A stretch of DNA of 64,000 nt from the NCBI GenBank assembly GCA_031441465.1, contig JANOEP010000027.1:13572-77571 (forward strand). The letters run 5' to 3'. This document shows, one piece after another, positions 30,812 to 63,811 of the stretch. The DNA is from a bacterium. GTDB lineage: Bacteria; Krumholzibacteriota; Krumholzibacteriia; LZORAL124-64-63. Position numbers and translations under genes: made by a program. The stretch's first letter is position 1. Each line of letters opens with the position of its first letter. The notes beneath the pieces are model-generated. The model was given only the letters and a program-made list of their open reading frames with translations. It was not told the origin of the DNA and searched no databases.

Positions 30812-31602
30812 CCAGGCTGCGCGTGGCCGCGATCCAGACCTCGCCGGTGTTCGGCGAGCCCGCCCACAACCTCGAGACGGCCCTGGCCCTGGTGCCGCCC
30901 GGCCTCGACCTGGCCGTCCTGCCCGAACTCTGCACGACCGGTTACCAGTTCCGCGATCGCGAGGAAGCGCTGGGCCTGGCCGAGACGGCCGACGGCCCGA
31001 CGTCGCGGCGCCTGGCGGCGTGGGCCGCCGCGACCGGCACCACCCTGGTGGCGGGCTTCGCCGAGCGCGACGGTGATCAGCTCTACAACAGCAGCCTGCT
31101 GGTGCGGCCCGACGGCACCACGGCGTTCTACCGCAAGGTCCACCTCTTCTGGGACGAGAAGCTCGTCTTCGCGCCGGGCGACCTCGGCTTTCCCGTCATC
31201 CCGGCCTGCGGCACGTCGGTGGGCATGATGATCTGCTTCGACTGGATCTTTCCGGAGGCGGCCCGCACCCTGGCGCGGCGCGGCGCGAAACTCATCGCCC
31301 ACCCCAGCAATCTGGTGCTGCCCCACTGCCCCGACGCGATGGTGACGCGCTGCCTGGAGAACCGCTGCTTCGCGGTGACGGCGAACCGGGTGGGCGGCGA
31401 GGAGCGGGTCGAGGGCCGGCGGCTCGAATTCATCGGCCGCAGCCAGGTCTGCGGCCCCGGCGGTGCGCCCCTGGTGCGCCTCGGCGGCGACGTCGCGGGC
31501 GTCGCCGCGGCCGTGATCGACCTCGCCGACGCCGACCCGCGCCTGACGCCGCGCAACGATGTGTGGGAGGATCGCCGGCCGGATCAGTACACGGACGGCT
31601 AG
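30808..31602 (+). CDS. Carbon-nitrogen hydrolase (nitrilase superfamily)
   Basis: GTGA overlap; catalytic triad LPEL / YRKVHL / ICFDW; ANRVG. Confidence 0.92.
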   Translation: MTRLRVAAIQTSPVFGEPAHNLETALALVPPGLDLAVLPELCTTGYQFRDREEALGLAETADGPTSRRLAAWAAATGTTLVAGFAERDGDQLYNSSLLVRPDGTTAFYRKVHLFWDEKLVFAPGDLGFPVIPACGTSVGMMICFDWIFPEAARTLARRGAKLIAHPSNLVLPHCPDAMVTRCLENRCFAVTANRVGGEERVEGRRLEFIGRSQVCGPGGAPLVRLGGDVAGVAAAVIDLADADPRLTPRNDVWEDRRPDQYTDG

Positions 31603-32882
31603 GCTATGGCCTCGGCGCCGGCCCGCCAGTCCTTCGGCACCACGACCACGCCGGCCTCGGTCACCTTGAACAGGCGGTGGTCGGCCTCGCGGTCCCAGCC
31701 GATGTGCATGCCGTCGGGGATCTCGGCGCCCTTGTCGACGATGGCGCGGTGGACCGCCGCGCGCTTGCCGATGCGGGCGTTGTCCATGATCACCGAATCG
31801 ACCACGTGGCAGCCGGCGTCGAGGTAGACGTTGCGACCCAGGATCGAGCGCTCGGCGGTGCCGCCGGAGATGATGGTGCCGCCGCCGACGATCGAGCCGA
31901 TCAACTGCCCGATCGGGCTGGCGCCGTCGAAGTGGTTGTGGACCGTCTTGGCGGGCGGGGCCGGCGCCATCCAGGTGCGGATCGGCCAGTCGCGGTCGTA
32001 GAGGCTGAACGGAGGCACCGGACGGATCAGGTCCATCGAGGCGGCGTAGTAGGTGTCGAGCGTGCCGATATCGCGCCAGTAGCGCGGCTGGTCGGTCTCG
32101 TGGTCGAGGAAGGGATAAGCCAACACCCCGCCTTCGCGCACCATGGCCGGGATGACGTTCTTGCCGAAGTCGTGGGCCGATCTCGGGTCGCCCGCGTCCT
32201 TCTGCAATTCGCTGACGAGGTCCTCGCGGTTGAAGACGTAGACCCCCATGTTGACCAGGCACCAGTCGGGCTTGCCGGGGATCGTCTTGGGGTCCGACGG
32301 CTTCTCCTGGAACCCGATCACCCAGCCCTTCTCGTCGACCTCCAGGATGCCGAACTCGTGGGCCTCGCTGCGCGGCACCACGACCGCGGCCAGGGTCAGG
32401 CGCGCCTTGCGGCGGGAGTGCAGGACCATCAGCGTGGAGTAGTCCATGCGGTAGATGTGGTCGCCGGAGAGGATCAGCACGAAATCGGGCTGCTCGCGGT
32501 CGATGAGGTAGATGTTCTGGTAGATGGCGTCCGCGGTGCCGCGGTACCACATCTCGCCGACGCGATGCTGCGGCGGGATGCCGTAGAGGAACTCCCCGGC
32601 CTCGTGGTTGAAGATCTGCCAACCCTTCAACAGGTGCTTGTCCAGCGAGTAGGACTTGTACTGCGTCAGCACGTAGATGCGGCGCAGGCCCGAATTCCAG
32701 ATGTTGCTGAGCGTGAAGTCGATGATGCGGTAGTTGGCGCCGAACGGCACGCCGGGCTTGGACCGCTCGTCGGTCAGGGGCCGCAGCCGTTCGCCGCGCC
32801 CGCCGGCCATGATCATCGTCAGGGTGTGGCGCGGCAGGTCGAGGATCTTCACGGGCGAGTCCGTCTTGCTGCCGACGCTCAT
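31599..32882 (-). CDS. glgC: Glucose-1-phosphate adenylyltransferase
   Basis: AGGRGERLRPLT, KPGVPFG, YRIIDF, WYRGTADA, LSGDHIYRMDY, FQEKP, HDFGKNVIP, YWRDIGT. Confidence 0.97.
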   Translation of the reverse strand: MSVGSKTDSPVKILDLPRHTLTMIMAGGRGERLRPLTDERSKPGVPFGANYRIIDFTLSNIWNSGLRRIYVLTQYKSYSLDKHLLKGWQIFNHEAGEFLYGIPPQHRVGEMWYRGTADAIYQNIYLIDREQPDFVLILSGDHIYRMDYSTLMVLHSRRKARLTLAAVVVPRSEAHEFGILEVDEKGWVIGFQEKPSDPKTIPGKPDWCLVNMGVYVFNREDLVSELQKDAGDPRSAHDFGKNVIPAMVREGGVLAYPFLDHETDQPRYWRDIGTLDTYYAASMDLIRPVPPFSLYDRDWPIRTWMAPAPPAKTVHNHFDGASPIGQLIGSIVGGGTIISGGTAERSILGRNVYLDAGCHVVDSVIMDNARIGKRAAVHRAIVDKGAEIPDGMHIGWDREADHRLFKVTEAGVVVVPKDWRAGAEAIA

Positions 32883-34330
32883 GTTCCCTCCAGGCTGCAG
32901 TAGAGATCCTCGTAGGCGGCCGCCGGCGCCGCCCAGCCGTAATCCGCGTCCATCCCCCGCCGCACGAGACTACTCCATCGGCCCGGCTCGCGCCAAGCTT
33001 CGATCGTGCGGGCGAGCGCGGCGCCGAGCGCCGCCGGCGTCGCCTCGTCGAAGACGAAGCCGTCCCCGGCGGGGTCGGCGGCGTCGGTCACGGTGTCGGC
33101 CAGCCCGCCGGTGCGCCGCACCACCGGCGGCGTGCCGTAGCGCAGGGCGTACAGCTGGGCCAGGCCGCAGGGTTCGAAGCGCGACGGCATCACGAAGGCG
33201 TCGGCGCCGGCGTAGAAGCGGCGCGAGAGGGCCTCGTCGAAGCGCGCGGCGAAGGCGATCCGGCCCGGATGAGCCGCCGCGGCCGCGCTCAGGGCCAGTT
33301 CCAGGGCGGGTTCGCCGGTGCCGAGCACGGCCAGCCGCCAGCCGTCGTCGACGAGCGTGCCGACCAGCGGCAACAGCAGGTCGATCCCCTTCTGCTGCGC
33401 CAGGCGGCCGACCGAGGCGAGCACCGGTCCGCCGTCCTCGAGCCCCAGTTCCCTCAGCAGGGCGGTGCGGCAGGCGATCTTGCCGACCGGCGCACGCGCC
33501 GTGTAAGTCGCGGGCAGGCAGGGGTCGGTGGCCGGGTTCCACGCCTCCCGGTCCATGCCGTTGAGGATTCCCGAGAAGTCCGCGCCCCGATCGCGCAGCA
33601 CGCCGGCCAGGCCGCAACCCAGGTCCTCGTCGGCGGTCACCTCGTGCGCGTAGGTCGGGCTGACCGTGTTGACCCGGTCGGACAGCAGGATGCCGGCCTT
33701 CATCAGGTTCAGGCCGCCGTGAAATTCCATCTCGCCGGGGTGCCAGGCCAAGCGCGCCGGCAGGTCGAGGCCCGGGAACTCCCAGCGCGGATGGAGCGAT
33801 TGGTGGGCGAGGTTGTGGATCGTCAGCAGCGTGCGGGACTTGGCCAGCGGCGTGCCCGCCCGCGACCAGCAAGCCAGGTCGACGGCCGCCAATGCGCTCG
33901 CCGCGTCGTGGAGATGGACCACGTCGGGCGCCCAGTCCAGCATCACCGCCGCCTCCAACGCTCCCTGCGCCAGCAGGGCCAGGCGCGGCAACGTGTCCGC
34001 GAACTCGCTCGTTTGCGCGTAGCCGTAGATGCCGGGGCGAAAGTACAGAGCTGCGTTCTCGAGCAGCAGCACGTCGGGACCCTCGGCGGCCTGCGCGCGC
34101 CAAAACCGGCAGCGCCGCACCGCGCCGCCGCGGCGCACCGCGAAGAACGGCAGTTCCGGGCAGGGCGTCAGCGCGTGCAGTTCCCGGTCGATGTCGCCGT
34201 AGAGCGGCAGCACGACCTTCACCTCGTGCCCGCGCGCGGCCAGGGCGCCCGCGAGCGCCGCCACCATGTCGCCCAGGCCGCCGGCCTTGGCCAGCGGCGC
34301 GTACTCGGCGGTGATCATCAGGATCTTCAT
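32879..34330 (-). CDS. glgA: Glycogen/starch synthase (GT5)
   Basis: KAGGLGD, HLHD, TIHNL, TVSPTYA, GILNG, RLAQQKG, PSRFEPCGLAQL, TGGLADTV. Confidence 0.96.
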   Translation of the reverse strand: MKILMITAEYAPLAKAGGLGDMVAALAGALAARGHEVKVVLPLYGDIDRELHALTPCPELPFFAVRRGGAVRRCRFWRAQAAEGPDVLLLENAALYFRPGIYGYAQTSEFADTLPRLALLAQGALEAAVMLDWAPDVVHLHDAASALAAVDLACWSRAGTPLAKSRTLLTIHNLAHQSLHPRWEFPGLDLPARLAWHPGEMEFHGGLNLMKAGILLSDRVNTVSPTYAHEVTADEDLGCGLAGVLRDRGADFSGILNGMDREAWNPATDPCLPATYTARAPVGKIACRTALLRELGLEDGGPVLASVGRLAQQKGIDLLLPLVGTLVDDGWRLAVLGTGEPALELALSAAAAAHPGRIAFAARFDEALSRRFYAGADAFVMPSRFEPCGLAQLYALRYGTPPVVRRTGGLADTVTDAADPAGDGFVFDEATPAALGAALARTIEAWREPGRWSSLVRRGMDADYGWAAPAAAYEDLYCSLEGT

Positions 34331-34331
34331 C

Positions 34332-36497
34332 TCAGACCTCCCGCGGCGCGGCGACCCCGTGCTCGATCGCGAACGACTGCCGGAAGGTCTGCGTGACGCC
34401 GGGATCGAGGTCGAGGTCCCAGACGAACAGCAGCAGGTGCCCCTGGTAGGTCAGCCGGAAACCGTCCTCGGCCTGCGTCGCCGTGCGCACGGCGTGGATC
34501 CACACCTCCGCCTCGTTGCCCAGCTCCCAGCGCAGCGCGGCGCGGTGCAGGGGCACCAGCACGGTCAGTTCGCGGCGACGGTCGAGGCGGACCGAGTCCA
34601 GCGGCGTCGCCGGCTCGTCGCCGTCCGGAGCGTAGGCGCCGCCGTCGTACAGGGCCAGGTTCCACTCCGGCGCGAAACGGCAGCGCACGCGTTCCGTGCC
34701 GATGTTGCGCACCGTCCAGGCGACGTCGAACGCCGCGCCGTTGCGGTGCAGCGCCACCGTCTTCTCCACCTGCAGCGGGAAGGCGCGGCCCCCGCGGTCG
34801 CGGTAGCAGCCTTCGCGGCGGGTCTGGAAGCGATCGTCCTCGAGGCTGCCCGTCTGGCCAAAGCGGGGCGACGTCATCGCCGCCGGCGCGGCGGCGAAAT
34901 CGCCGCCGTCCTGGCCGGCCATGTCCGGCAGCACGTTGGGGAACCCGGCGTCCGGGTGCAGGAAGCGCTCGAGCAGGGAATAGCGGGGCTGGGGGTCCAC
35001 GGCCAGCGCCCGCTTGATTTCCGGCGACACGCGGGTGACCAGGTCGTGGATCGACACGCCCTGATCGGCGCCGGCGGCGTCGCCGCCCGCCCCGGTGAGC
35101 GGCGCGCGCTCGATCTTGGTGTGGTAGGCCTCGCGCCGGCGGCGCAGGGTGTTCTGGAGATTCCAGTCCTCGCGGCGGTCTTCGAGACCGATCAGCGCGC
35201 CGCCGCGGTCCGGCGAGAGGTAAAGTTCGATCGCGTCGTTGCCCAGCCGCACGTCGGTGCCCGTCCGGCCGACCAGCGACACCATCTGGGCGCGCGGGGG
35301 CGGCGCCACGGTCTGGATGATCTCGGTGCCCAGGATCAGGTGCCGGTAGATCGCGTGACGCAGGTGCGGCAGGTAGAGACCGCCGAAGACGCCGTGCCAG
35401 TAGGCGCAGTTGCACTGGGCCCGCCACAAGTGGTCGCGGGCCTCGTCGACGCGCTGCTCGTCGGCGCCGGTGGCCTCGGCGGCGGCGATCTCCTCGTGCA
35501 GCAGCAGGGAGCGCCGCTGCATCAGCAGGCTCTCCTCGTACTTCTGGAAGAACTGGCGCCAGAAACCGCCCCTGAAGAAGGGGCGCATCTCGTCCCAGCG
35601 GTCCTGGTCGCGGTAGGCGTGCACCGCGTCGGCGAAGATCTCGGCGGCGGGCATCGGCAACGACCATTCCGACATCTCGAAGTAGCTGCCGGGCGGCAGG
35701 TAGACGCGCTCGCGCGGCGGGCGGGCCCGCAGCACCTCGGACGGGTGCGCCAGCTCGAGCCAGTCCGACTCGGCGTCCAGGGCCGTACAGAAGCGGTCCA
35801 GCCAGCCGCGGCCGTAGACGAGGTCGTGGGTGCCGGGCCAGGCGCCGAACTTCTCGCCGTCGTCGATCATGACCAGGACGCCCTCGGGGTCGCGCTCGTG
35901 CAGGGCGCGGCAAGCGGCCACGGTTTCGGACGGGTCGCGGAACGGGATCAGGTAGCGCAGCTGCTCGCTGATGGGCAGCAGGGCCACCTCGTGGCCGAGG
36001 TCGTCGGTCAGCAGCGGGCCGTGGGTCAGGCGCTCCGGCGGCACGCCGGCCTGGACGAAGTGGTAGTCGTCGAGCAGGGCGAACTCCACGCCGGCGCGGG
36101 CCAGCGAGCCGGCCAGGTGCGGCTCCCAGACGCGCTCGGCCATCCAGACGCCGCGGCAGTCGGCGCCGAGGTGCTGGCGCACCCAGTCGCACATCATCCG
36201 CAGCTGGCCGACGCGGTCGCGCTCCGGGATGGCGGCGAGGATCGGCTCGTAGAAGCCGCCGCCGAGCATCTCCACGCGCCCCGCGCGCACCAGGAAGGCC
36301 GCGCGCTCGAGCCACTCCGGGTGGTGGCGCTGCAGCCATTCCAGCAGGGGTCCGCTCACGTGCAGGCTGAAGCGGAAACGCTCGTGGCGCTCGACCCGCT
36401 CCAGGAACGGCAGGTAGCTGCTGCGGTAGATGTCCTCGATCACGTGATCGAAGTTGCCGACGGGCTGGTGGTTGTGGATGCCGACGACGAGCTTCAC
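34332..36497 (-). CDS. GH57 4-alpha-glucanotransferase / alpha-amylase (with DUF1925/DUF1926-type C-terminal part)
   Basis: GTG start overlapping the upstream stop; HNHQP, GGFYEPIL, WMAERVW, DDGEKFG, AQCNCAYWHGVFGGLYLPHLR. Confidence 0.92.
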   Translation of the reverse strand: MKLVVGIHNHQPVGNFDHVIEDIYRSSYLPFLERVERHERFRFSLHVSGPLLEWLQRHHPEWLERAAFLVRAGRVEMLGGGFYEPILAAIPERDRVGQLRMMCDWVRQHLGADCRGVWMAERVWEPHLAGSLARAGVEFALLDDYHFVQAGVPPERLTHGPLLTDDLGHEVALLPISEQLRYLIPFRDPSETVAACRALHERDPEGVLVMIDDGEKFGAWPGTHDLVYGRGWLDRFCTALDAESDWLELAHPSEVLRARPPRERVYLPPGSYFEMSEWSLPMPAAEIFADAVHAYRDQDRWDEMRPFFRGGFWRQFFQKYEESLLMQRRSLLLHEEIAAAEATGADEQRVDEARDHLWRAQCNCAYWHGVFGGLYLPHLRHAIYRHLILGTEIIQTVAPPPRAQMVSLVGRTGTDVRLGNDAIELYLSPDRGGALIGLEDRREDWNLQNTLRRRREAYHTKIERAPLTGAGGDAAGADQGVSIHDLVTRVSPEIKRALAVDPQPRYSLLERFLHPDAGFPNVLPDMAGQDGGDFAAAPAAMTSPRFGQTGSLEDDRFQTRREGCYRDRGGRAFPLQVEKTVALHRNGAAFDVAWTVRNIGTERVRCRFAPEWNLALYDGGAYAPDGDEPATPLDSVRLDRRRELTVLVPLHRAALRWELGNEAEVWIHAVRTATQAEDGFRLTYQGHLLLFVWDLDLDPGVTQTFRQSFAIEHGVAAPREV

Positions 36498-38346: not shown

Positions 38347-38508
38347 GAGTCATTCCCCAGAGGCGAGAGCAGAGCGAGTCAAGCGTGCAGCGGCGGGAGC
38401 GGGGCGACCCGCTCCCGCCGTTTTATGCCTCGTTCAGGAATCCCCCTTGGAGCAGCGCACCCGGATCGACTAAGATCGCCCCCGTCCCGAACCCTGAGGA
38501 GCGACGGC

Positions 38509-39591
<1,083 letters not shown>

Positions 39592-39608
39592 TTCGGGACC
39601 GCCGCCCG

Positions 39609-41972: not shown

Positions 41973-43244
41973 ATGATCCGGATCACCTCGGCGCGCCGCT
42001 GCGCGCTCTTGCTGCCCGCACTGCTCAGCCTCGCCGCCACGGCCCGGGGAGCGGCGCGCGAGGACTTCGACTTCGTCCTGGCCGGCGACATGCGCCGCTA
42101 CATCGTCGTCGACGGCATCCACGGCTGGGATCAGGCCTGCGCGGCGATCGCCGCGGCCGGCCCGGGCGCCTTCCTGGTCTCTCCGGGCGATTTGGATCAG
42201 CAGGGGACCACCAACCCCGCGAGCATCGTCTCAGCCACGGTCGAATCCGAGATCGGACCCGGGTATCCCTTCTTCCCGGGCGTCGGCAACCACGATGCGG
42301 AGCACGCCCCGACCATGCAGTGGCTCCGCGGCTTCGACCTGGGCGGACCGGGCCTCGCGGTCAACCCGGGACCGCCCGGCAGCGAGGAAACCACCTTTTC
42401 GTGGGACTACGCGCACGCCCATTTCGTGATGCTCAACGAGTGCTTCGACGGCGTCGACGACACGGGCGCCATCTACGGCAACTGGAACCCGGCGTTGGAT
42501 GCCTGGCTCGAGGCCGACCTCGCGGCCACGACACAACCGCTGATCTTCGTGTTCGGCCACTTCCCGGCCTGGCCCCGTCCCGATCGCGACAGCGGCCTCT
42601 GGAATCACGCCAACGACACGGCGTTCAACGCCTACGGCGGCGGGGTCTACCGCGACGCGCTCTGGGACATCCTGACCCGGCACCAGGTGACGGCCTACGG
42701 GTGCGGGCACACCCACACCACGAGCGTCGTGAATTTCCAGGGCGTCTGGCAACTGGACCAGGGCCATGCCCGCGGGCCGGTCAACACGAGCTTCAACGGC
42801 CTGAGCACGTTCCTGATCGTCCACGTCCGGGCCAGCGGCGCCGTGGTCGTGGACACCTGGCGGCAGCCCCACACCGAAGGCGCCGGCAACGAGGCGCCCT
42901 ACGCCCTGGCCCACGTCGACACGCTGCGCCAGGCCGATCCCGCCACCGCCGCACCGCCCGCGCCGACGTCCCTGGCCGACCTGCGCGTCTCGCCGAACCC
43001 CTTCAACCCGTCGCTGCTGGTCGAGTGCGAGGTGGCGGAATCCCGGGACCTGAAGGTCGGGATCTTCGACCTGCGCGGCCGGCTGGTGGCCGACCTTTGG
43101 CGGGGCGCCGTGCCCGCCGGCACGCACGTCCTGCGCTGGGACGGGGACGGCCCGGACGGGCGCGCCGCGCCCTCGGGCTCGTACCTCGTCCGCATGGAAG
43201 ACGGCGGTGTCGCGACGAGCCGTCGCGTCACGCTGGCCCGCTGA
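41973..43244 (+). CDS. Secreted calcineurin-like metallophosphoesterase with a FlgD-Ig/T9SS-like CTD
   Basis: Signal peptide; GDMR, PGDLD, GNHD, FGHFP, GHTH; C-terminal PNPFNP...IFDLRGRLV...WDG...SGSYLVR. Confidence 0.85.
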   Translation: MIRITSARRCALLLPALLSLAATARGAAREDFDFVLAGDMRRYIVVDGIHGWDQACAAIAAAGPGAFLVSPGDLDQQGTTNPASIVSATVESEIGPGYPFFPGVGNHDAEHAPTMQWLRGFDLGGPGLAVNPGPPGSEETTFSWDYAHAHFVMLNECFDGVDDTGAIYGNWNPALDAWLEADLAATTQPLIFVFGHFPAWPRPDRDSGLWNHANDTAFNAYGGGVYRDALWDILTRHQVTAYGCGHTHTTSVVNFQGVWQLDQGHARGPVNTSFNGLSTFLIVHVRASGAVVVDTWRQPHTEGAGNEAPYALAHVDTLRQADPATAAPPAPTSLADLRVSPNPFNPSLLVECEVAESRDLKVGIFDLRGRLVADLWRGAVPAGTHVLRWDGDGPDGRAAPSGSYLVRMEDGGVATSRRVTLAR

Positions 43245-45699: not shown

Positions 45700-45710
45700 G
45701 GACATCCTCC

Positions 45711-55700: not shown

Positions 55701-58700
55701 AGAACGAGCCCGCAGACCACAACAGCTTCGACACGATCGACCTGACCGCCGTCGTGCTGGACAACACGCCCGACACGTTGCTGCTGGAGATCCCCTTCAC
55801 CACCGACTGGGCCGGCGTCCAGCTGCACGTGCTGCTGGAGACCAACGCCGACGCGGGCGGCGCCGCGAGCGACCCCTTCGTCATGCCCGTCAACTACGGC
55901 CACGCGCTGCGGCCCGACTACGCCCTGACCTCGAAGTATTCCGCCAACGACTACGGCGACTTCCGCAAGGCGTCCGGCGCGGGCTGGCAGTTCTGGAGCA
56001 CCGCGACGGCGACCTTCGAAGACTCCCCCGGCACGAACAACATCCAGGACAGCTGGGTCGAGATCACGGCCGACGCGGTCCGCATCGCCATCCCGTTCGC
56101 GGCCCTCGGGGGCGCGCCCGATTCGCTGCGCTGCGAGGTCTACGCCACGCAGGAGGACGGGGGCCAGAAGCGCTCGGCCTTCGACTCGGTCCCGCCCGAC
56201 GCCACCCTCGACCTGGACTTCGACTACCTCGACCCGCAGACGGGCGACTGGGAGTCGACGGTGCTGCCGACCACGCTCGCCAACTGGGGCCGCACCTACC
56301 GGATCAAGACCGACTTCCCGACGCCGCCGGCGGTGACCGAAGCCGCCGCCGCGCCCGTCGAACTGACGGCCGGCACGCCCTACGTCCTGACCGCCCGGGT
56401 CCTGGACGCGGGCGACGGCGTCGGCGACGTGCTGGCCGACCTCTCGTCGACGGCGGGCGCCGCGCTGGCGCGGATGCACGACGACGGCGAGACGGCCCAC
56501 GGCGACGCCTTCGCGGGCGACGGCGTCTTCAGCCTGCGCGCGTTGGTGCCCCTGGGCAGCCCCGGCGGCGAGCAACCGCTGGTGGTCCTGGCCTACGACG
56601 CCGCCAACCGCGTCGCCGCGCGCGACACGGCGCTGGTGCAGGTCGCCGCGCAGGTCGAGATCCTCCGCAGCACCACCGACGCCGAGGGCGACGACCACGG
56701 CCCGAACCAGCCGAGCGAGGCCCTCAAGTACTACACCTACCCGACCAACGCCGTCTTCGTGCCGAACGCCTTCGACCTGCGCTCGCTGAACGTGTACGAG
56801 ACCACGGCCGTGGTGGCCGGCCGGCCGGTCGTCATGCTGGCCTTCGAGATCGGCGTCGGCGACTTCCCCAACCCCGCCGATCCCGGCATGGCCGACTGGA
56901 ACCCCACCTACGGCGAGATGAACATCCAGAAACTGGACCTGCTGATCGACAGCGCGCCGGGCGGGGCGACCACCGGCCTGCCCAACCGCCGCCTGGACCT
57001 GCAGCCCTGGAACGCCTGGGAGTACGCCGTGATCATGGACGGCTGGTACAAGGCGCTGGTCCCTTCGTTGGGCCTGAACTCGCTGGACGCCTGGCGCGAG
57101 AACGCCCTGCGCAACGACGTCGACATGCAGTTCTCCGGGGACTTCGACCGCAACACGATCACCGCCCTGGTCTCCAAGGCGGCCCTGGGCAACCCGACCG
57201 CCGACGACGTGCGCAACTGGAACATCGCCGTGCTGATCTCGAGCCACGACTTCGGCGGCGAAGAGGTCCTGGGCGGCGTGCGCTGGGTCAACGAGGCGCG
57301 CAGCGAGTGGAACTTCGGCGGCGGCCACTACACCGACCGCGACGCCAACGTCATGGATCTGCTGCTCTCTCCGGGCGCCGGCCGCAGCGCCGGCCTGCCC
57401 CAGGAGCAGATCCTGGACTACGACCGGCCCGAAGCGCGCGACCGCCTGGCGCAGGGCCTGGCCGCCTGCGCCCTGGAGATCTCCGCTTTCGAGGACACCG
57501 GCCCGCCGGTGATCCGCATCGTCAAGGACTACGGTGAGGTCGTGCGCCGCACGCCGCTGCGCGACGCGCCGATCGCCTTCACCCTGGAGATCAGCGACGA
57601 CTACGCCGTCGACCACGCAACCTTCCGCTACCGGCCCAGCAGCGCCGCCGGCGCCTGGTCGGCGGAATCGCCCATGGGCTACGTGGGCAACGACCTCTGG
57701 AGCGTCGACATCCCCGCCGCGTGGCTGGACGAGAACCTGGTGCGCTCCCCCGTCGACGGCACGCGCTACCTGGAGTTCCAGGTCGAGGCCGTCGACGCCA
57801 GCGCCGAGCACAAGACCACCGTCTCGCCGGTGACCACCATGCAGATCGAGGAGACGGCCGAGAGCCTGCGACTGACCGCAGCCATGGTTGCGGGCGAAGT
57901 GCGGCTGCGCCAAGTGGAGGGCTCGACGCTGGTCCTGGACGACGCCCTGCGCGGCCGGCTGGTCGAGTACTACCGCGACTGGACAGGCTCGACCCTGACG
58001 GCCGACAGCCTGGCGATCGTGCTGGAACTCGGTTGGGATCTGCGCCGGGTCCCGGACAGCGTGCGCAGCGCCCCCGCCGCCACGGACGCCCGTCCACTGG
58101 GGGTGACCCGCGAGGTGCGGCTGGACCTCGCCGCGACGTCGAGTCGCCTGGTGCCGCTCGATGACCGCCTCCCGGGTCCACTGTCGCTCACGCTGCACTA
58201 CATGCAGTCGGACCTGCCGCCCGGCGCCGACGAGGACCAGGTCGCGGTCTTCGAGTACCACGCCGCGGCGAACCGCTGGGTCCTGGTCGGCGGCAACGTC
58301 AATCCCGACGGCAACGAGGTCACCATCAACACCGACCACGCCGGGACCTACGGCCTGTTCTGGGCCCGCGACCTCGGCTACGACACGGGTGAGGTCGTCT
58401 CCGGCGTCACGATCTCGCCGAACCCGTTCTCCCCCAACGGCGACGGGCTCTACGACCAGACCACGATCAGCTTCTACCTCGACCGCGAGGCTTCGATCAC
58501 GCTCGAGGTCTACAACATCGACGGCAAGCTCAAGGCGCGGCTGCAGGAGACCGTCTCCTACACCGGCGACGACGACGCCCAGGGCCGACCTCGCCGCATC
58601 GCCGGCTTGATCTGGGACGGCACCGACGGGAACGGCGACCTCGTCCCTTACGGCGTGTACGTGCTGCGCCTGCTGGCCACCTACCAGGTGGGCGGCGGCA

Positions 58701-58744
58701 ACCGCACGATCGGCAGCAACCATCCCGTGGCGGTGATCCGATGA
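52766..58744 (+). CDS. 1992-aa secreted/surface multidomain protein (DOMON/CBM9-like, carboxypeptidase-regulatory-like and Big/invasin Ig repeats, glucodextranase-C-like DOMON, PNPFSPNGDG-type CTD)
   Basis: Signal peptide; TATAAT upstream at 52710; AQLYDSAGN and AQLVDAYGN Ig motifs; MHDDGETAHGDAFAGDGVF; DAEGDDHGP...YTYPTNAVF...FDL; C-terminal ISPNPFSPNGDG...WDGTDGNG...GVY. Confidence 0.8.
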   Translation: MRASQLLRTRAALAALLVLLGAAGAAAEPFHTPTVNGLIAGDGVDWETPDRVLDDFDDDGNQRSGNTRHLWLTWDQNNLYLGLNYQALDRTVVVYLDAGLGTGPTDASLLDQFPRALVLPAGRHIDLLLAQHHTGFTNLGTLQAWRVTDATGALTEITTSTQNAQTYGVDNTFPGASIFWFRNEIAIPWSVVYPDGPPAHAVLRAAVAVTPGADGAGADDLMPGLGRLEGVAGPIRIAQMHASILDQDGDGEVDPLDAGASGTVTLQQDPGNAAITATATLTDWSGAPLGGPIAAVRTAAGAHDYRLGRLAAGTYTLQFSAPGYFPNTIEVTVAAGQELTGANVTLEKATTITGTLALELAGSRGGFVFRAPDGAVLAEQPLLLPNQFPYHFTFYVQESGDYELEAFAANHLRRTFTIPVVAGVDVANLVLQLPRAPLIAGAASFASGPGAAGTVTIGNAAGDTVLATTVIGPGATAFSYYAPRLGALTLRATAGTYAPVVLNVNVVAGQDLNGLALPLHRLPQLAGSIGFADGPGHAGRLILSGGAADPDTLDFPADGGTFAEGSGELAPFFVPAGSYLLTAEADGYVPQTRELAVADAPDQTVDAGVFSLLAVRADRLRLLDDQGLPTVSVSATVSVPADGFYSYAPLRLEAVDAAGRRDLFDLDAKLADLPLTARKLDDVSPPSGAARFLASEDFADVVTTASADSGLIRLWIADDAVEVLRLYVGPDVPDHLKQGPESPTARFMVGFNDPRPAVVVLAAERDTLRTDGQDAVLVSAQLYDSAGNASLLPDIAVTFSVAPSSTGEGAFTVPTVTTNADGFAVAELTATGTGVLQIDASVSIDGAVLEVRTGGPDGPVGRLPVTVIPGVTVSWRIAAAAGTAGIALPATIVAQLVDAYGNPTADAGVPLTFVAAPATLGSFTVPATQSGADGRATAVFQPAGLAGVVTLDAVSSAYPVEPVLLQLRDVAVETDPDWQNEPADHNSFDTIDLTAVVLDNTPDTLLLEIPFTTDWAGVQLHVLLETNADAGGAASDPFVMPVNYGHALRPDYALTSKYSANDYGDFRKASGAGWQFWSTATATFEDSPGTNNIQDSWVEITADAVRIAIPFAALGGAPDSLRCEVYATQEDGGQKRSAFDSVPPDATLDLDFDYLDPQTGDWESTVLPTTLANWGRTYRIKTDFPTPPAVTEAAAAPVELTAGTPYVLTARVLDAGDGVGDVLADLSSTAGAALARMHDDGETAHGDAFAGDGVFSLRALVPLGSPGGEQPLVVLAYDAANRVAARDTALVQVAAQVEILRSTTDAEGDDHGPNQPSEALKYYTYPTNAVFVPNAFDLRSLNVYETTAVVAGRPVVMLAFEIGVGDFPNPADPGMADWNPTYGEMNIQKLDLLIDSAPGGATTGLPNRRLDLQPWNAWEYAVIMDGWYKALVPSLGLNSLDAWRENALRNDVDMQFSGDFDRNTITALVSKAALGNPTADDVRNWNIAVLISSHDFGGEEVLGGVRWVNEARSEWNFGGGHYTDRDANVMDLLLSPGAGRSAGLPQEQILDYDRPEARDRLAQGLAACALEISAFEDTGPPVIRIVKDYGEVVRRTPLRDAPIAFTLEISDDYAVDHATFRYRPSSAAGAWSAESPMGYVGNDLWSVDIPAAWLDENLVRSPVDGTRYLEFQVEAVDASAEHKTTVSPVTTMQIEETAESLRLTAAMVAGEVRLRQVEGSTLVLDDALRGRLVEYYRDWTGSTLTADSLAIVLELGWDLRRVPDSVRSAPAATDARPLGVTREVRLDLAATSSRLVPLDDRLPGPLSLTLHYMQSDLPPGADEDQVAVFEYHAAANRWVLVGGNVNPDGNEVTINTDHAGTYGLFWARDLGYDTGEVVSGVTISPNPFSPNGDGLYDQTTISFYLDREASITLEVYNIDGKLKARLQETVSYTGDDDAQGRPRRIAGLIWDGTDGNGDLVPYGVYVLRLLATYQVGGGNRTIGSNHPVAVIR

Positions 58745-59622
58745 CAAGAACCACGACGAGGCGGGTCCTGCTCGCCCTCCTGCTGGTGCTCGGCGCCGCC
58801 CAGTCGGCCCGGGCCGACTTCCGCCACGCCCGTCTGGGTGCGCGGCCGCGGGCCCTGGGCTCGGCCTTCACGGCGTTGAGCGACGACCCCAACGCCGTGT
58901 TCTGGAACCCCGCCGGCCTGTCGCGCGACGACCGGCTCTCGCTCACGCTCAGCCGGGCCTGGCAATACTCGGCGGAAGGCCTGGGCACCGACGACCTGAT
59001 CGTGACCTCGCCCGACCTGTGCGGTCTGCGGGTGGGCCTGGGCGTCATCCGCGTAGGCATCGAGGACCTGCTGTACGAGGACACCTACGCCCTGGCCGGC
59101 GCCGTGCGCGCACCGTGGCTGGAGGGGCTCTCGCTCGGGGTGACGGGCAAGGTCTTCCGCCTGGAGGCGCCCGGCTACGAGAGCTACGGCGACCCCGCCT
59201 ACAACGGCGGCGACATGGGCTTCGCCGTGGACCTGGGCTTCCTCTACGACAGCGGCCGGGCCTGGACCCTGGGCGGCGTGGTGCAGAACCTGAACGAGCC
59301 CTACCTGCAGCTGCTGGAGACGACCGTGGACCCCGATCCGGTGTTCAGCACCTTCGCCGTGGGCGGCAGCTACCTCTTCCGCGAGACACTGCGGGTCAGC
59401 GGCGACGTGCGCAGCCGCGAGGGCGGCTTCGGCGACACGACGCTGCACGGCGGCGCCGAGATCTGGTTCTTCGACGCGCTGGCCCTGCGGGCCGGCCTCG
59501 CCGCCGGCCAGGTCACGATGGGCTTCGGCCTGCAGGACGTGCGCTGGCAGCTCGACGTGGCCCTGGAATCCTTCGAACGCGTCGGCAACGTGTACATGCT
59601 CTCTTTCACGGTGAGGGACTGA
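58741..59622 (+). CDS. PorV/PorQ (FadL-like) outer-membrane beta-barrel, T9SS shuttle-like
   Basis: ATGA overlap with the giant gene; signal peptide followed by GARPRALGSAFTALSDDPNAVFWNPAGL; GFAVDLGFLY; LALRAG. Confidence 0.8.
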   Translation: MTRTTTRRVLLALLLVLGAAQSARADFRHARLGARPRALGSAFTALSDDPNAVFWNPAGLSRDDRLSLTLSRAWQYSAEGLGTDDLIVTSPDLCGLRVGLGVIRVGIEDLLYEDTYALAGAVRAPWLEGLSLGVTGKVFRLEAPGYESYGDPAYNGGDMGFAVDLGFLYDSGRAWTLGGVVQNLNEPYLQLLETTVDPDPVFSTFAVGGSYLFRETLRVSGDVRSREGGFGDTTLHGGAEIWFFDALALRAGLAAGQVTMGFGLQDVRWQLDVALESFERVGNVYMLSFTVRD

Positions 59623-59623
59623 C

Positions 59624-61234
59624 GTGAAGTCTAGCTGGCGACGCAGTGCGCTCCTGCTGCTGACCGCGGCCCTGACGGCCGGCTCCGCGGCGACCGCCGC
59701 GGCGGCGACGAAGCTCGAGGGGTACTACTCGATCTGGTCCGCCGCCGACCGCACCGACCGCAACTGGCATTTCGGGATGCCCTCCCACTACGCGGAGCTG
59801 AAGTTCCTCAACAACGCCAGCGAGGGCGTCGAGAGCTTCGTCAAGCTGCGCGTCAACGCCAACAGCGACGACGACCGCACCTCGTTCGTCGAGTACTACA
59901 CGCCGCCCTGGATCGCGGCGGAGGGGCACATCAAGTTCCGCAGCAAGGCCACCGAGACGATCCTGTTCTCGCGCCAGAACCACTTCTGGATCAACGACGA
60001 GCCCCTGTTCAACCTCGTCAGCGACGGCAAGCTGAAGAACGACAGCTACGGTCCGCAGTCCCAGGGCGTGCGCTTCGAGCTTTTCAACCACCGGCTGCCC
60101 GGGCTGGGCACGTGGGGCGCCGTCGCCATCTACAGCGACGACGGCGGCACCCACAACTGGGGGCAGGGCGACGTGCGCGACGGCGTCGACTCCTGGATCG
60201 TGCGCGTGCGCAACCGCTCCTGGGGCGACCGCCTGGTGGGCGGCCTGATGTTCCTGCGCAAGGACTGGACCGACACCGGTGCGCCGCTGGCCACGTCGCG
60301 GCTCGGCCTGATGAACAACCAGGTCTACGAAGCCGACCTGGCCTTCTTCCCCCACGACCTGGTCGCCGACGGTCTGCACCTCGGCCCGCTGGACCTGGAA
60401 CAGTCGCGCTGGACACTCGAATACGCGCTGAGCCGCGTGCCCTACCAGGAGCACATCAGCGGCCACCCCACCGATTTGAACCGCCTCTTCGGCGCCGAGG
60501 TGCGCGACATCCACGTCGGCAACCTCATCCTGCACGGCTGGTACCACGACGCCGGCGAGAACTTCCGCGACTTCCTCTCCGGGCGCTGGGACGACGAGCG
60601 CAAGTACAACCGGATCACCCAGCACGCCGAGGGCATCTTCTTCGTGCCCCGCAAGGCGATCACCGCCAAGGTCGCCTACGACAAGGAGCGGCTGCGGGTC
60701 CCGGACGAGATCGGCTTCGGGCTGCGCCCGTCCGAGACCTGGTACGGCGAGGTCTACGTCGAGTTCATCAAGGGGTTCAAGGGCAAGACCATCTACAAGC
60801 GCTGGCACGGCTTCGACGCCGATTCCGACGTCAACGCCTACGCCACCTACCCCGACCTGTTCGCCGAGCTGTCGGTCGAGAACTTCCTGGCGAAGATCCG
60901 CCTGCAGTTCCGCCTGCACGACTTCGACACCTTCCGCGAGTCGAGCGCCTACGGCTTCGACATGAACGTCAACATCACCGACAAGGTGAAGGGCTACCTG
61001 CGCATGCTCGACGCCCGCGACAGCGTCGAATCGCGCCAGACGGCCTTCGCCCAGCTGAAGTACGACCTCGGCTACGGCGCCGAGTTCTACTTCGAGTACG
61101 GCGACCCCGGCCAGTCCGACAACATCGTCTGGACGGACTGGTTCATCGGCTTCGTGGATCCGGACGCCAGCCGCACGCCCAACAGCCGGTTGTTCAAGGA
61201 CCGCCTGGCGATGTCCTTCCGGACCTGGTTCTGA
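59624..61234 (+). CDS. Outer-membrane beta-barrel protein (putative porin)
   Basis: Signal peptide, aromatic-rich amphipathic strands, C-terminal LAMSFRTWF (terminal Phe, BAM beta-signal-like). Confidence 0.7.
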   Translation: MKSSWRRSALLLLTAALTAGSAATAAAATKLEGYYSIWSAADRTDRNWHFGMPSHYAELKFLNNASEGVESFVKLRVNANSDDDRTSFVEYYTPPWIAAEGHIKFRSKATETILFSRQNHFWINDEPLFNLVSDGKLKNDSYGPQSQGVRFELFNHRLPGLGTWGAVAIYSDDGGTHNWGQGDVRDGVDSWIVRVRNRSWGDRLVGGLMFLRKDWTDTGAPLATSRLGLMNNQVYEADLAFFPHDLVADGLHLGPLDLEQSRWTLEYALSRVPYQEHISGHPTDLNRLFGAEVRDIHVGNLILHGWYHDAGENFRDFLSGRWDDERKYNRITQHAEGIFFVPRKAITAKVAYDKERLRVPDEIGFGLRPSETWYGEVYVEFIKGFKGKTIYKRWHGFDADSDVNAYATYPDLFAELSVENFLAKIRLQFRLHDFDTFRESSAYGFDMNVNITDKVKGYLRMLDARDSVESRQTAFAQLKYDLGYGAEFYFEYGDPGQSDNIVWTDWFIGFVDPDASRTPNSRLFKDRLAMSFRTWF

Positions 61235-61305
61235 CCGACGCCGCGCGGCCCGCGGGCCGCCTGTCCCCGCCGGCGCCGCCGGCGAGACCCGATAGGGAGC
61301 AAACG

Positions 61306-63354
61306 ATGCGCAAGCACGATCCGATCCTCCTGGCCGCCGCCCTGCTGCTCGGGACCCTGCTGCTCGCCGCTGCGCCGGCGGCCGCGGCCGTCAAGAGCGT
61401 GCCCGTCGGCGTGAAGTTCACCCACCAGGCGCCCGGCGCGGGCAAGGTGAACCTGGCCGGCTCGTTCAACGGCTGGGACGCCCAGCGCCATCCCCTGACC
61501 GACGAGGGCGGGGGCGTCTGGTCGATCGTGATGGCGCTCAAACCGGGCAAATACGACTACAAGTTCGTCGTGGACGGGGCCTGGTTCGCCGACGCGGAGA
61601 ACCCGGACTCCACACCGGACTCCTACGGCGGCACCAACTCGGCGATCCAGGTGGGCGACGACGGCAAGCTGGTCGCCGTGGCCGCCTCCGCGACGAAGGC
61701 GGCTCCCGCCACGACGCTCAACCCGAAGCTGACGTACAGCGGCCGCTACCTCGGGCGCTATCTGGCCTGGAAGGACCGCGACGGCGATCCCCGCTTCCGC
61801 ATGGAGCGCCCCGAGCAGAACGTCGATCTCAACTTCAACACCAAGGTGAGCGACGTCGTCGACGCCTACACCAGGCTGCGCCTGGACAACACGACCAACG
61901 TCGTGCTGAACAACATCCACGCCCAGCTCGACGAGGGCGCGATCGACGTCCACCCCGGCCCCTACCGGGTCCTGGGCTACTGGGACATGGAAACCCTGCA
62001 ACTGGGCGATCCGCTGAGCAGCGGCGGCGATGTCGATCTACCCGGCACGATCCTGGACGACCACCTCAAGGCGGGCAAGGGCACCGCCGGCGTCGTGGTC
62101 GCCGGCTCGCCCTTCGGCCTGATGTACGAGGGGTTCTTCGCCGACGTGCACGACGCGAACTACTACAACGACATCAACCTCTACGACAACACCGGCCGCG
62201 ACATCTTCGGCTCGCGCCTCTCCCACCAGGCGCTGGGCCTGACCTTCGGCGTGCCCTTGTACCTGCAGCGCGAGCTGGTCTGGGTCGAAATGACCAGCCT
62301 GCTGGGCCAGCCCGACGGTACCGGCATCGCGGCCCTGGACCGCTACCTGGACCTCACCGGCGACTCCAGCGACTGGTTCGAGCTGGACCGCTTCGACCTG
62401 CGCCTGGGCTTCGACCTCACCCGCGAGCTGTCGGACGGCCGCGGCCGCGCGCAGCTGGAGTGGTTGTACGCGGCGGCCGACGAGCGTTTCGTCACCGGCA
62501 GCCGCACCGGCTTCAACAACACCAACGGCCCGACCGACATCGACCTCTCCACGCGCGCCCGCCGCATCTGGCACGCCTCACTCGAGCAGACGCTGCGCCC
62601 GGGCCGCCGGGTGAACGTCGAGCACACCACCGTGACCGAGAGCGGCGCCCAGCCCGGCGAGGCTTCCACGAACTTCGTGTTCCTCGACCAGGCCAGCGCC
62701 AGCAATCGCGTCTACATCGCCTTCGGCCCGGCTCGGCCCGCAATGACGACCGAGTACACCGAGCTGACCTGGACCGAGGAGGCGGAGGACCGCAGCCACC
62801 TGCTGTGGGTGCAGCGCTACGCCGTTGCGGCGGACTACGCCGCGGCCGGCCTCGCGGCCCCTGACGGCGGGACGACCGCCGACGCGACGATCTGGTCGGT
62901 GGCGACCCGCCATGTCCTAGGCACTCCCGGCGACCGCTACGGGCACTGGGACCTCGAGGGCGCCTGGTCGGACCTGAACGACCACGTGACTCCCGCCCAC
63001 GGCCACAGCCTGGAGTGGATCCTGCGGGCCGACCGGCAGGTCTCGCGCCGCATGCACGCCTTGTTGAACCTGCGCTGGATCGGCTACCGGCTCGACGGCC
63101 TCGCGGGCGGCGACGACGAGTTCTTCGCGCCCTGGCTCGGCCTGCAGTACCAGCCCAGCCCGCGCCTGGACGTGACCTTCTTCTACGGCGTGGACCCGCT
63201 GGACTTCGGCATCGACTACGACGGCCGCGAGGTCGGGCGCTGGCGGTACCGCCGGCAGTACGTCCTGGACCACGCGGGCACGACGGAACTGGACGCCGAG
63301 CAGTCGCTCGCCGACGTCCAGGCCCTGGGCATCCGCGCCAACATGCGCTTCTAG
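61306..63354 (+). CDS. CBM48 (AMPK-beta-like glycogen-binding domain) fused to an outer-membrane beta-barrel
   Basis: Signal peptide; VNLAGSFNGW...GVWSIVMALKPGKYDYKFVVDGAWFADAENP...YGGTNS; Ala-rich linker; barrel ending GIRANMRF. Confidence 0.8.
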   Translation: MRKHDPILLAAALLLGTLLLAAAPAAAAVKSVPVGVKFTHQAPGAGKVNLAGSFNGWDAQRHPLTDEGGGVWSIVMALKPGKYDYKFVVDGAWFADAENPDSTPDSYGGTNSAIQVGDDGKLVAVAASATKAAPATTLNPKLTYSGRYLGRYLAWKDRDGDPRFRMERPEQNVDLNFNTKVSDVVDAYTRLRLDNTTNVVLNNIHAQLDEGAIDVHPGPYRVLGYWDMETLQLGDPLSSGGDVDLPGTILDDHLKAGKGTAGVVVAGSPFGLMYEGFFADVHDANYYNDINLYDNTGRDIFGSRLSHQALGLTFGVPLYLQRELVWVEMTSLLGQPDGTGIAALDRYLDLTGDSSDWFELDRFDLRLGFDLTRELSDGRGRAQLEWLYAAADERFVTGSRTGFNNTNGPTDIDLSTRARRIWHASLEQTLRPGRRVNVEHTTVTESGAQPGEASTNFVFLDQASASNRVYIAFGPARPAMTTEYTELTWTEEAEDRSHLLWVQRYAVAADYAAAGLAAPDGGTTADATIWSVATRHVLGTPGDRYGHWDLEGAWSDLNDHVTPAHGHSLEWILRADRQVSRRMHALLNLRWIGYRLDGLAGGDDEFFAPWLGLQYQPSPRLDVTFFYGVDPLDFGIDYDGREVGRWRYRRQYVLDHAGTTELDAEQSLADVQALGIRANMRF

Positions 63355-63367
63355 GAACGGGAGAGTG

Positions 63368-63811
63368 ATGAGCAAGCACCGACGTCCGCGACCGCTGCGC
63401 CCGACCGTCCTGCGCCCGATGATCCTGGGCTTGGCCGCCCTGCTGCTGCTCGGCGGCTGCGGCTACATGCGCGTGATCCGCACCCGCGTCCCGCCGCCGA
63501 AGCGCCTGGACGACGGCCTGGTCCGTTTCTTTTACGAGGCGCCCCAGGCCAAGCACGTGAACCTGTGCGGCAACTGGGACGAGAACGACTGGTGCAGCAC
63601 CCGCGGCACCGGCCGCTTCGACCACGAGATCGGCGCCATGCACGACGACGACGGCGACGGCATCTGGGAGATCCAGATCCACCTCGAACCCGGCCGCTAC
63701 GAGTACAAGTACGCCGTCGACTGGGGCATGCGCTGGGAGCAGGATCCCAGCAACCCGACGGGGCGGGACGACGGGTTCGGTGGGCAGAACTCCATCCTCA
63801 TCCTCAAGTAG
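63368..63811 (+). CDS. Small lipoprotein with a CBM48-like glycogen-binding domain
   Basis: Lipobox LGG-C; VRFFYEAPQAKHVNLCGNW...DGDGIWEI...LEPGRYEYKY...DPSNP...DGFGGQNS. Confidence 0.85.
   Translation: MSKHRRPRPLRPTVLRPMILGLAALLLLGGCGYMRVIRTRVPPPKRLDDGLVRFFYEAPQAKHVNLCGNWDENDWCSTRGTGRFDHEIGAMHDDDGDGIWEIQIHLEPGRYEYKYAVDWGMRWEQDPSNPTGRDDGFGGQNSILILK

Follow-up and report, generated by a model that had tools for sequence, protein, structure and literature searches.

How does a bacterium bring starch-like polymers across its outer membrane if it possesses neither SusC nor SusD? The question is raised by a gene locus at the right end of a 64,000-nucleotide stretch of bacterial DNA (the window), which covers positions 13572–77571 of contig C27 (JANOEP010000027.1). 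C27 is 77571 bases long, so that the right edge of the window is also the end of the contig, and it belongs to a genome of 74 contigs that is 96.8% complete. According to the record names of its matches, the genome falls into the Krumholzibacteriota, a phylum found widely in sediments, sludge, and groundwater. Our understanding of how glycans cross the outer membrane comes mainly from the SusCD pair of Bacteroidota and from the LamB-type porins of Proteobacteria.

An earlier note on the window had proposed a conserved locus for the capture and import of alpha-glucans that lacks SusC and SusD, and this proposal is borne out by the synteny and the searches described below. The genes that travel together encode a small PorV-like outer-membrane barrel, a 536-residue barrel (B536), a barrel with an N-terminal carbohydrate-binding module of family 48 (CBM48; the fusion protein is termed CBM48bar), a CBM48 lipoprotein, an enzyme of glycoside hydrolase family 13 (GH13) with five CBM48 modules and a signal peptide, a debrancher, and a MalEFGK importer. 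Most lineages add a giant tailed surface protein (P1992) and two tailed secreted proteins (P796 and P1257). We assign a probability of about 65% to the reading that this set serves the utilization of alpha-glucans (starch, glycogen, maltodextrin), doing the job of a Sus system with different outer-membrane parts and independently of TonB. By comparison with described systems, the locus seems to work like Sus or the maltose system and to belong to neither, its outer-membrane part being new and so far a prediction.

SusD (PF07980) has no match in the genome, in a search that was positive in the Bacteroides thetaiotaomicron control. The model for SusC (TIGR04056) reaches 57 bits at best, compared with a cutoff of 368, so no SusC-type receptor was found. 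Among 208 genomes of the phylum, two contain SusD, both with an internal stop. Eight ordinary TonB-dependent receptors (PF00593) are present in the genome, all on other contigs; contig C27 itself contains no match to a TonB-dependent receptor, GH13, or SusD.

Conservation of the locus in the phylum

We selected 25 loci from 23 related genomes by their match to CBM48bar and aligned the proteins of the window onto them. The CBM48 lipoprotein is present in all 25 loci, the PorV-like barrel and CBM48bar in 24 each, and B536 in 23. These are followed by the five-CBM48 GH13 (22), P1992 (21), MalE (19), MalF, MalG, and P796 (17 each), MalK (15), P1257 (14), and the debrancher and a second GH13 (11 each); several of the missing genes reflect contig ends. 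The genes glgC and glgA and each of two cytoplasmic enzymes of family GH57 were found in only two loci, and a metallophosphoesterase gene in one. This low count does not sustain the idea, also put forward in the earlier note, that supplying glycogen synthesis belongs to the system.

The block PorV-like–B536–CBM48bar–lipoprotein retains its order and strand, whereas the importer, the GH13 genes, and the tailed proteins switch sides. In most loci the block is preceded by P1992, and MalEFGK, the exported debrancher, and the secreted tailed proteins adjoin it. Three further loci, all from family f3, carry the four-gene block beside the debrancher and a malE–GH13–malFG operon. Since the same genes are co-located in the 25 loci and in these three, their grouping is far beyond chance.

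One could nevertheless regard the locus as an ordinary MalEFGK operon that happens to lie beside unrelated outer-membrane and surface genes and forms no functional unit. Each of the families is common by itself, and the left half of the window is indeed filled with unrelated housekeeping genes. This explanation is contradicted by the co-location in seven families of the phylum, where the genes stay together despite rearrangements, and by the recurrence of CBM48 on the barrel, the lipoprotein, and the GH13 alike; we consider it highly improbable.

For counting across the phylum we used a B536 profile, as this protein contains no promiscuous domain. A search with CBM48bar recovered full-length relatives across many genera, but its tally of 202 of the 208 genomes was inflated by the CBM48 domain alone and was set aside. 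The B536 profile matches 77 of the 208 genomes, 53 of the 125 high-quality genomes, and 36 of the 81 genera. By family, the counts are 47/90 (f1), 2/7 (f2), 6/12 (f3), 6/10 (f4), 1/1 (f5), 12/43 (f6), 2/8 (f7), 0/23 (f8), and 0/13 (f9). Two genomes contain two copies of the barrel block, G168 (contigs C1 and C3) and G070 (contigs C18 and C20).

Genes of the locus and the contig junction

The G+C content of the window is 70%, which fills machine-made lists of open reading frames with false frames. Third-position GC served to select the coding frames, which were then identified with Pfam and NCBIfam. Unrelated housekeeping genes occupy the left 31 kb; from there to the end of the window we assigned the following features.

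31599–32882, minus strand: glgC, glucose-1-phosphate adenylyltransferase (NF001947, 533.7 bits; cutoff 470); a lineage-specific neighbor rather than a core gene
32879–34330, minus strand: glgA, ADP-glucose glycogen synthase (TIGR02095, 482 bits, above cutoff); lineage-specific neighbor
34332–36497, minus strand: cytoplasmic GH57 of the 4-alpha-glucanotransferase type (PF03065, 141.3 bits; PF09094, 96.8 bits; PF09095, 136.9 bits)
36494–38206, minus strand: cytoplasmic GH57 of a second type (PF03065, 122.5 bits)
38425–39591, plus strand: MalK/UgpC-type ATPase of a sugar ATP-binding cassette (ABC) transporter (NF008653, 492.5 bits; cutoff 432), with an OB_MalK domain
39609–41840, minus strand: exported amylo-alpha-1,6-glucosidase (GDE_C) debrancher (PF06202, 209 bits), with a signal peptide; N terminus MRPYSLMFLLLLTLPAQVVAG
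41973–43244, plus strand: secreted metallophosphoesterase (PF00149, 28.3 bits) with a C-terminal tail of the FlgD_ig type (PF13860, 35.7 bits; cutoff 27)
43324–45714, minus strand: P796, secreted protein of 796 residues with Big_5, a pair of choice-of-anchor X motifs, and a type A tail of type IX secretion systems (T9SS)
45711–49484, minus strand: P1257, secreted protein of 1257 residues with a C-terminal tail (PF03065, 15.6 bits, under the cutoff of 21.2)
49645–50487, minus strand: MalG-type permease (PF00528, 62.7 bits)
50487–51386, minus strand: MalF-type permease (PF00528, 63.8 bits; NF008232, 164 bits, under the cutoff of 392)
51383–52636, minus strand: MalE-type solute-binding lipoprotein (PF13416, 88.4 bits; NF007011, 102.6 bits, under 291), lipobox LLATAGGC
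52766–58744, plus strand: P1992, giant secreted protein of 1992 residues with Glucodextran_C (PF09985, 90 bits), Ig-like and CarboxypepD_reg domains, and a long, distinct C-terminal FlgD-like tail
58741–59622, plus strand: small PorV/PorQ/PorP-like outer-membrane barrel (NF033709, 57.2 bits; cutoff 90; PF13729, 29.6 bits)
59624–61234, plus strand: B536, predicted 24-strand outer-membrane barrel of 536 residues from an unannotated family
61306–63354, plus strand: CBM48bar, with a signal peptide, CBM48 (residues 28–119; PF02922, 49.6 bits; PF16561, 53.4 bits), a linker, and a predicted 22-strand barrel ending in phenylalanine
63365–63811, plus strand: CBM48 lipoprotein (PF16561, 24.3 bits; PF02922, 20.1 bits; both just below their cutoffs)
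63860–64000, no strand: last 141 bases of C27, identical to the start of contig C48 in an exact suffix–prefix overlap

The start and stop coordinates outline a tightly packed, divergent pair of operons, with malEFG–P1257–P796 reading leftward and P1992–PorV-like–B536–CBM48bar–lipoprotein reading rightward. The stop of P1992 overlaps the start of the PorV-like gene by 4 nucleotides, and the next gaps in the rightward operon measure 1, 71, and 10 nucleotides. GlgC, GlgA, two GH57 enzymes, MalEFGK, the debrancher, P1992, the PorV-like barrel, B536, CBM48bar, and the lipoprotein all lie at or near the positions given by the earlier note, which had also rightly predicted unusual outer-membrane barrels together with a MalEFGK-type importer. 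Its labels for the two tailed proteins P796 and P1257 stood less well, as discussed below.

The importer belongs to the CUT1 (MalEFGK) type, as judged by PF13416, two copies of PF00528, and PF00005 with OB_MalK. It does not reach the equivalog cutoffs for the Escherichia coli proteins MalE, MalF, and MalK (423.9 bits for the ATPase, below 568), whereas the cutoff of the UgpC/MalK subfamily is reached. Both cytoplasmic GH57 enzymes exceed the PF03065 cutoff, and the first contains the AmyA-gluTrfs middle and C-terminal domains; its translation has no visible signal peptide. The debrancher, which has a signal peptide but no C-terminal sorting tail, is probably periplasmic.

Almost every gene of the locus had been tied to alpha-glucans in the earlier note. 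The tailed metallophosphoesterase, which went unmentioned there, has no evident link to alpha-glucans. The enzyme is of the calcineurin type and is kept in the closest relative alone; that it acts on phosphorylated starch is pure speculation.

The contig junction changes the enzymatic picture. From its start, C48 encodes a DUF134 helix-turn-helix protein, a NifX-like protein, the five-CBM48 GH13, and another GH13, and C48:126–6715 is colinear with module-flanking DNA of the same-genus genome G168 at 91.7% identity. The first GH13 is a 1273-residue frame with a signal peptide, a catalytic domain similar to neopullulanase and maltodextrin glucosidase, and no sorting tail. The second comprises 636 residues, resembles TreZ/GlgX, and has diverged from the first. 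Both genes lie ∼0.8–6.6 kb past the end of the window. The locus therefore does contain GH13, and its apparent absence is an artifact of the contig end. The earlier statement that no TonB-dependent receptor, SusD, or GH13 is present holds for C27, whereas it fails for the locus with respect to GH13. Likewise, the system is not GH57-based, as had been proposed.

Several observations concern the junction itself. Immediately 3′ of the stop codon of the lipoprotein gene begins a perfect 24-nucleotide inverted repeat (window positions 63814–63837 and 63919–63942), with another hairpin of 13 bp inside it; this structure is possibly a terminator, or else a repeat element at which the assembly broke. 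In G168, 2.9 kb of DNA (L036:16741–19535) separate the lipoprotein gene from the GH13 region and encode a 360-residue barrel-like protein and a 576-residue lipoprotein with repeated β-domains, neither of which belongs to any family. When this segment was searched in the present assembly, its flanks alone matched, and the 141-base overlap of C27 and C48 indicates that the genome does not contain it. Directly after the second GH13 (C48:6954–15028, L042), we observed an Hdr/Mvh-type cluster that is not found at the same place in G168. It encodes two flavin (FAD)/iron–sulfur (FeS) oxidoreductases, a ferredoxin-like protein, an MvhD-like FlpD, the small and large subunits of a NiFe hydrogenase, and a maturation protease.

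The outer-membrane barrels and the secreted proteins

The predicted model of CBM48bar (predicted local distance difference test score, pLDDT, 83; predicted template modeling score, pTM, 0.70) contains 22 long strands according to DSSP, which run to the C-terminal phenylalanine, and a linker of low confidence at residues ∼120–140. We superposed the model with solved structures using VIA-align. The top matches were the 22-strand barrels of TonB-dependent transporters (FyuA, PDB code 4epa: Z 15.1 over 381 residues, root-mean-square deviation (rmsd) 5.1), and CBM48bar aligned to the barrel part of these transporters alone. As judged from the model, it would thus have the strand number of a TonB-dependent transporter. 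Maltoporin (Z 13.9), CymA (Z 13.5), a SusC-like protein, and MtrB all score between 13.5 and 13.9, which is generic. Foldseek against the PDB also returned TonB-dependent transporters, with TM-scores of only 0.24–0.41, and we relied on VIA-align instead. The plug and receptor families of these transporters (PF07715 and PF00593) have no match in CBM48bar, Pfam finding CBM48-type domains alone, and no TonB box was seen.

The N-terminal domain of CBM48bar superimposes with solved CBM48 modules at Z 11–14 and rmsd 1.7–2.4 (PDB code 4aef, Z 14.0; AMPK β, Z 11.8). Together with the PF02922 and PF16561 matches above cutoff, this fold match places the domain in CBM48. Among 60 homologs of the barrel part, 58 carry CBM48, and their NCBI name is glycogen-binding domain-containing protein. 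The CBM48 modules of the genome are concentrated in this locus. Genera g2, g19, g20, g21, g23, g26, and g28 encode a longer CBM48-barrel protein of ∼820–840 residues with a second CBM48 in frame (e.g. G083:C1:3165603–3167996).

Both ends of an outer-membrane barrel are usually periplasmic, and so is an N-terminal domain. On the basis of this usual topology, the CBM48 of CBM48bar is expected in the periplasm and may face it rather than the cell surface.

An alignment of 18 sequences of the CBM48 lipoprotein displays an invariant G-C lipobox, which is followed by the consensus xYxRIIRNRLPxPHR with an R..P motif directly after the lipid cysteine. The CBM48 residues W76, Y114, K115, W124, and N142 are invariant, and so are the matching W, Y-K, W, and N positions in the CBM48 of CBM48bar (28 sequences). 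We take these positions to be the sugar-contacting residues of AMPK-β-type modules. In family f4, the lipoprotein possesses two CBM48 modules.

B536 is modeled with 24 long strands (pLDDT 75, pTM 0.69). Its best fold matches are the usher pores FimD (Z 18.3) and PapC (Z 18.1), which align over the whole protein and exceed the next-best group by about four Z units; the match to maltoporin (Z 13.8) is generic. We rejected its assignment as a chaperone–usher pore, because its 536 residues form the barrel only, without the plug and terminal domains of an usher, and match no Pfam usher family. No Pfam or NCBIfam family matches B536 at all. In a set of 5.8 billion proteins we found 129 relatives, none with a Pfam domain and all called “hypothetical protein” where the source names them. 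The family comprises 117 clusters among 1.84 billion representatives (49 of 50 scanned clusters have no Pfam family) and 63 loci among 185,579 species genomes. The genome contains no paralog of B536 and none of the CBM48bar barrel part.

At 22 and 24 strands, the two large barrels are of a size seen in gated transporters and ushers and not in porins, the term used in the earlier note; maltoporin has 18 strands and CymA 14. None of the three barrels of the locus matched the LamB or CymA family in Pfam scans. The small barrel is termed “PorV-like” because its match to NF033709 is split into two stretches and stays under the PorV/PorQ cutoff.

In strand number, the large barrels are like ushers and other export pores, which might suggest that the locus handles the cell's own alpha-glucan, exporting or remodeling a glycogen-like polymer of the capsule or periplasm that GlgC and GlgA produce. 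Indeed, in this genus and in g3, glgC and glgA lie next to the locus. They are adjacent in only two of the 25 loci, however, and the ABC system has a solute-binding protein, which makes it an importer. Moreover, the conserved partners are hydrolases with signal peptides (GH13, the debrancher, and the GH57-like P1257), and no genes for a polysaccharide exporter or polymerase were observed in the window. We therefore regard an own-glucan function as improbable.

The three tailed proteins were compared with the PDB by sequence and by profile, which returned the FlgD-like tail alone and, for P1992, glucodextranase (PDB code 1ug9, residues 734–1003, E 1e-7). No catalytic domain was found in P1992. 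The tail of P796 scores 24.9 bits with TIGR04183 (cutoff 23) and 36.5 bits with PF13860, as expected of a type A sorting domain. The tail of P1257 is slightly below the cutoffs (FlgD_ig, 26.7 versus 27; TIGR04183, 16.1 versus 23), and that of P1992 matches the curated C-terminal sorting models only weakly.

P796 had been called a multi-CBM protein, a label that has to be dropped: Big_5, the choice-of-anchor X motifs, and the C-terminal tail are all that was recognized. Its nearest non-self clusters in the Atlas are tailed starch-binding proteins with CBM20, CBM26, or CBM48 from other phyla of the FCB (Fibrobacteres–Chlorobi–Bacteroidetes) group (score 0.83), which is a lead only. To judge from these clusters, P796 is probably a glucan binder.

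P1257 had been described as a secreted GH57. It is secreted and tailed, whereas its GH57 match stays under threshold. In an hhalign comparison of a ten-ortholog P1257 profile with the GH57 of the window, HLSGPL, PERVW/AERVW, and EDWE/DDGE are paired, and the motif residues are invariant in the 10 P1257 sequences. The PERVW and EDWE motifs presumably correspond to the regions of the catalytic Glu and Asp of GH57. An Atlas lead also points toward GH57 (score 0.75), and BLASTP of P1257 against the second GH57 gave no meaningful alignment. Overall, we think it quite probable that P1257 is a divergent GH57-like enzyme.

The machinery that could export these proteins is encoded elsewhere in the genome. 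A 2267-residue frame matches SprA_N (43.5 bits, above cutoff), a full-length PorU-like gene (403 bits; cutoff 420) adjoins a PorV gene, and eight PorV-family genes exceed their cutoff. The model for PorU and T9SS sortases has 52 matches in the genome, most of them to the C-terminal tail region only. The GldL and GldM models have no match here and are equally silent in control genomes, which makes them uninformative. “T9SS-like” is a fair label for the secretion system, and the earlier view of the tailed proteins as T9SS-like cargo agrees with these genes. Amid the housekeeping genes of the window, we also observed a 531-residue protein (9869–11464) with an FGE-sulfatase domain, the fold of GldK/PorK; it has no GldLMN-like neighbors.

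Two other giant tailed frames of the genome are each directly followed by a PorV-family gene, as P1992 is by the PorV-like gene: at C9:106050–107296 (giant frame of 3123 residues; 106050, then the PorV-family gene at 106484) and at C49:41768–43104 (giant frame of 2310 residues; 41768, then 42307). This arrangement suggests another explanation, in which the barrel block is a device for the secretion or anchoring of P1992, as PorP/SprF is for type B T9SS cargo, whereas maltodextrins pass through ordinary porins and CBM48 serves only as a tether. The overlap of the P1992 and PorV-like genes and their frequent presence in the loci (21 and 24 of 25) are in accord with it, and type B cargo of Bacteroidota binds its own PorP-like barrel (PMC9143113). 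However, all three f3 loci keep the block with too little space upstream of the PorV-like gene to accommodate a giant gene, and the block still lies beside the debrancher and the malE–GH13–malFG operon. In addition, the other giant-cargo/PorV pairs of the genome have no paralogs of B536 or CBM48bar by their side, and the barrel of CBM48bar is fused to a glycogen-binding module in nearly all homologs. We consider a pure secretion or anchoring role unlikely, though clearly less so than an own-glucan function.

Proposed mechanism and relation to known systems

Under the favored alpha-glucan utilization reading, P1992, P796, and the GH57-like P1257 would be exported by the SprA/PorU/PorV-like system and, at the cell surface, would attach to alpha-glucan and cleave it. 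The large barrels would then let long, still-branched fragments through the outer membrane. TonB would not be needed for this step, as the large barrels have neither a plug nor a TonB box. In the periplasm, the CBM48 of CBM48bar, the lipoprotein, and the five-CBM48 GH13 would hold the incoming chain, which GH13 and the debrancher would trim to linear maltodextrins. The two enzymes are placed in the periplasm because they have signal peptides but no sorting tails, and their location there would imply that long, branched fragments arrive in this compartment. The MalE lipoprotein and MalFGK would import the linear maltodextrins. In this genus, the adjacent cytoplasmic GH57 enzymes and GlgC/GlgA would handle the products, an adjacency that is lineage-specific.

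A more specific version of this mechanism is possible, and we offer it tentatively. The plugless 22- and 24-strand barrels, the PorV-like barrel, and the CBM48 lipoprotein might jointly constitute a new class of glycan translocon that takes up long, branched chains without TonB. In such a translocon, a periplasmic CBM48 ratchet, made up of the N-terminal domain of CBM48bar, the lipoprotein, and the five-CBM48 GH13, would bind the emerging chain and stop it from sliding back.

A number of points weigh against the favored reading. The fold matches of the barrels are generic, and many unrelated barrels reach Z 12–14. Open barrels of 22–24 strands without a plug would leak, so that some gate must exist; this might be the last loop of CBM48bar, which is helical and conserved (residues ∼630–670), the CBM48 itself, or the conserved N-terminal stretch of the lipoprotein. 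The orientation proposed for the CBM48 follows from general barrel topology alone. Among the secreted proteins, P796 has no CBM recognized by Pfam or NCBIfam, the PF03065 match of P1257 is subthreshold, and the hhalign comparison of P1257 with the GH57 of the window, which covers 222 columns at 29% identity, has an E-value of 0.017 and a probability of 2.7%. As the loci were selected by CBM48bar and many are cut by contig ends, the synteny counts describe the neighbors of the module and not genomes. The module is also patchy within genera (4 of 8 genomes in g20 and 1 of 8 in g28). Finally, metatranscriptome contigs from three runs of two studies match parts of the locus at 90–97% identity, and single contigs span B536–CBM48bar and CBM48bar–lipoprotein; these matches are a weak hint, because RNA libraries may contain DNA, an assembled contig does not demonstrate a transcript, and most of the matches are short, spurious, and high in GC.

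The closest functional parallel is the Sus system of B. thetaiotaomicron (SusCDEFG with SusA and SusB) and the Sus-like polysaccharide utilization loci (PULs). In both cases, surface glucan binders and an amylase would feed a barrel of the size of a TonB-dependent transporter, the gene of a lipoprotein (here a putative partner) adjoins the barrel gene, trimming of the GH13 type would follow in the periplasm, and the genes are clustered in a single locus. In contrast to a Sus-like PUL, which is defined by adjacent SusC and SusD, the locus described here contains neither. CBM48bar possesses a CBM48 where SusC possesses a plug, no TonB box was seen, and there are two further barrels. Moreover, the surface proteins have T9SS-type tails in place of the lipid anchors of Sus, and an ABC importer is found at the inner membrane.

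The enterobacterial maltose system (LamB, MalS, MalEFGK, and MalQ) and CymA of Klebsiella oxytoca are similar in being independent of TonB, as would be the case here, and in having a periplasmic GH13 amylase. Further shared features are MalFGK with a binding protein of the MalE type and, in the cytoplasm, a 4-alpha-glucanotransferase. Unlike these systems, the locus has no match to the LamB or CymA family, its large barrels have 22 and 24 strands instead of 18 or 14, CBM48 is found fused to a barrel and on a lipoprotein, and giant tailed proteins are present at the surface.

Two further parallels come from the T9SS literature. Pairs such as SprB–SprF and PG1035–PorP (PMC9143113) also consist of a giant sorting-domain protein directly followed by a small PorV/PorQ/PorP-like gene, and SprA-, PorU-, and PorV-like genes are present in this genome as well. 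The difference is that the small barrel described here is under the PorV cutoff (57 versus 90 bits) and persists in f3 without room for a giant gene upstream. In Cytophaga hutchinsonii and “Candidatus Paraporphyromonas polyenzymogenes” (PMC5831590), where T9SS-linked polysaccharide degradation does without SusCD, tailed secreted glycan-active proteins replace the surface lipoproteins of the Sus type, as they seem to do here. Those systems act on cellulose and belong to Bacteroidota, and in the available text neither a barrel fused to a CBM nor an associated ABC importer is described for them. Among the papers listed by our searches, neither this locus nor a CBM48-fused barrel is described, as far as listings and abstract openings show. 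For a Krumholzibacteriota bin, glycoside hydrolases for starch and glycogen have been reported as the most abundant class (PMC10936416).

Thus, a phylum that is nearly without SusD retains an alpha-glucan locus, the three outer-membrane barrels of which belong to no annotated family. If these barrels are indeed the uptake route, they would represent a third solution to the uptake of glycans across the outer membrane. The genes, which are now annotated as “hypothetical” or “glycogen-binding domain-containing protein,” would then provide an annotation marker for the use of starch or glycogen in uncultured lineages.

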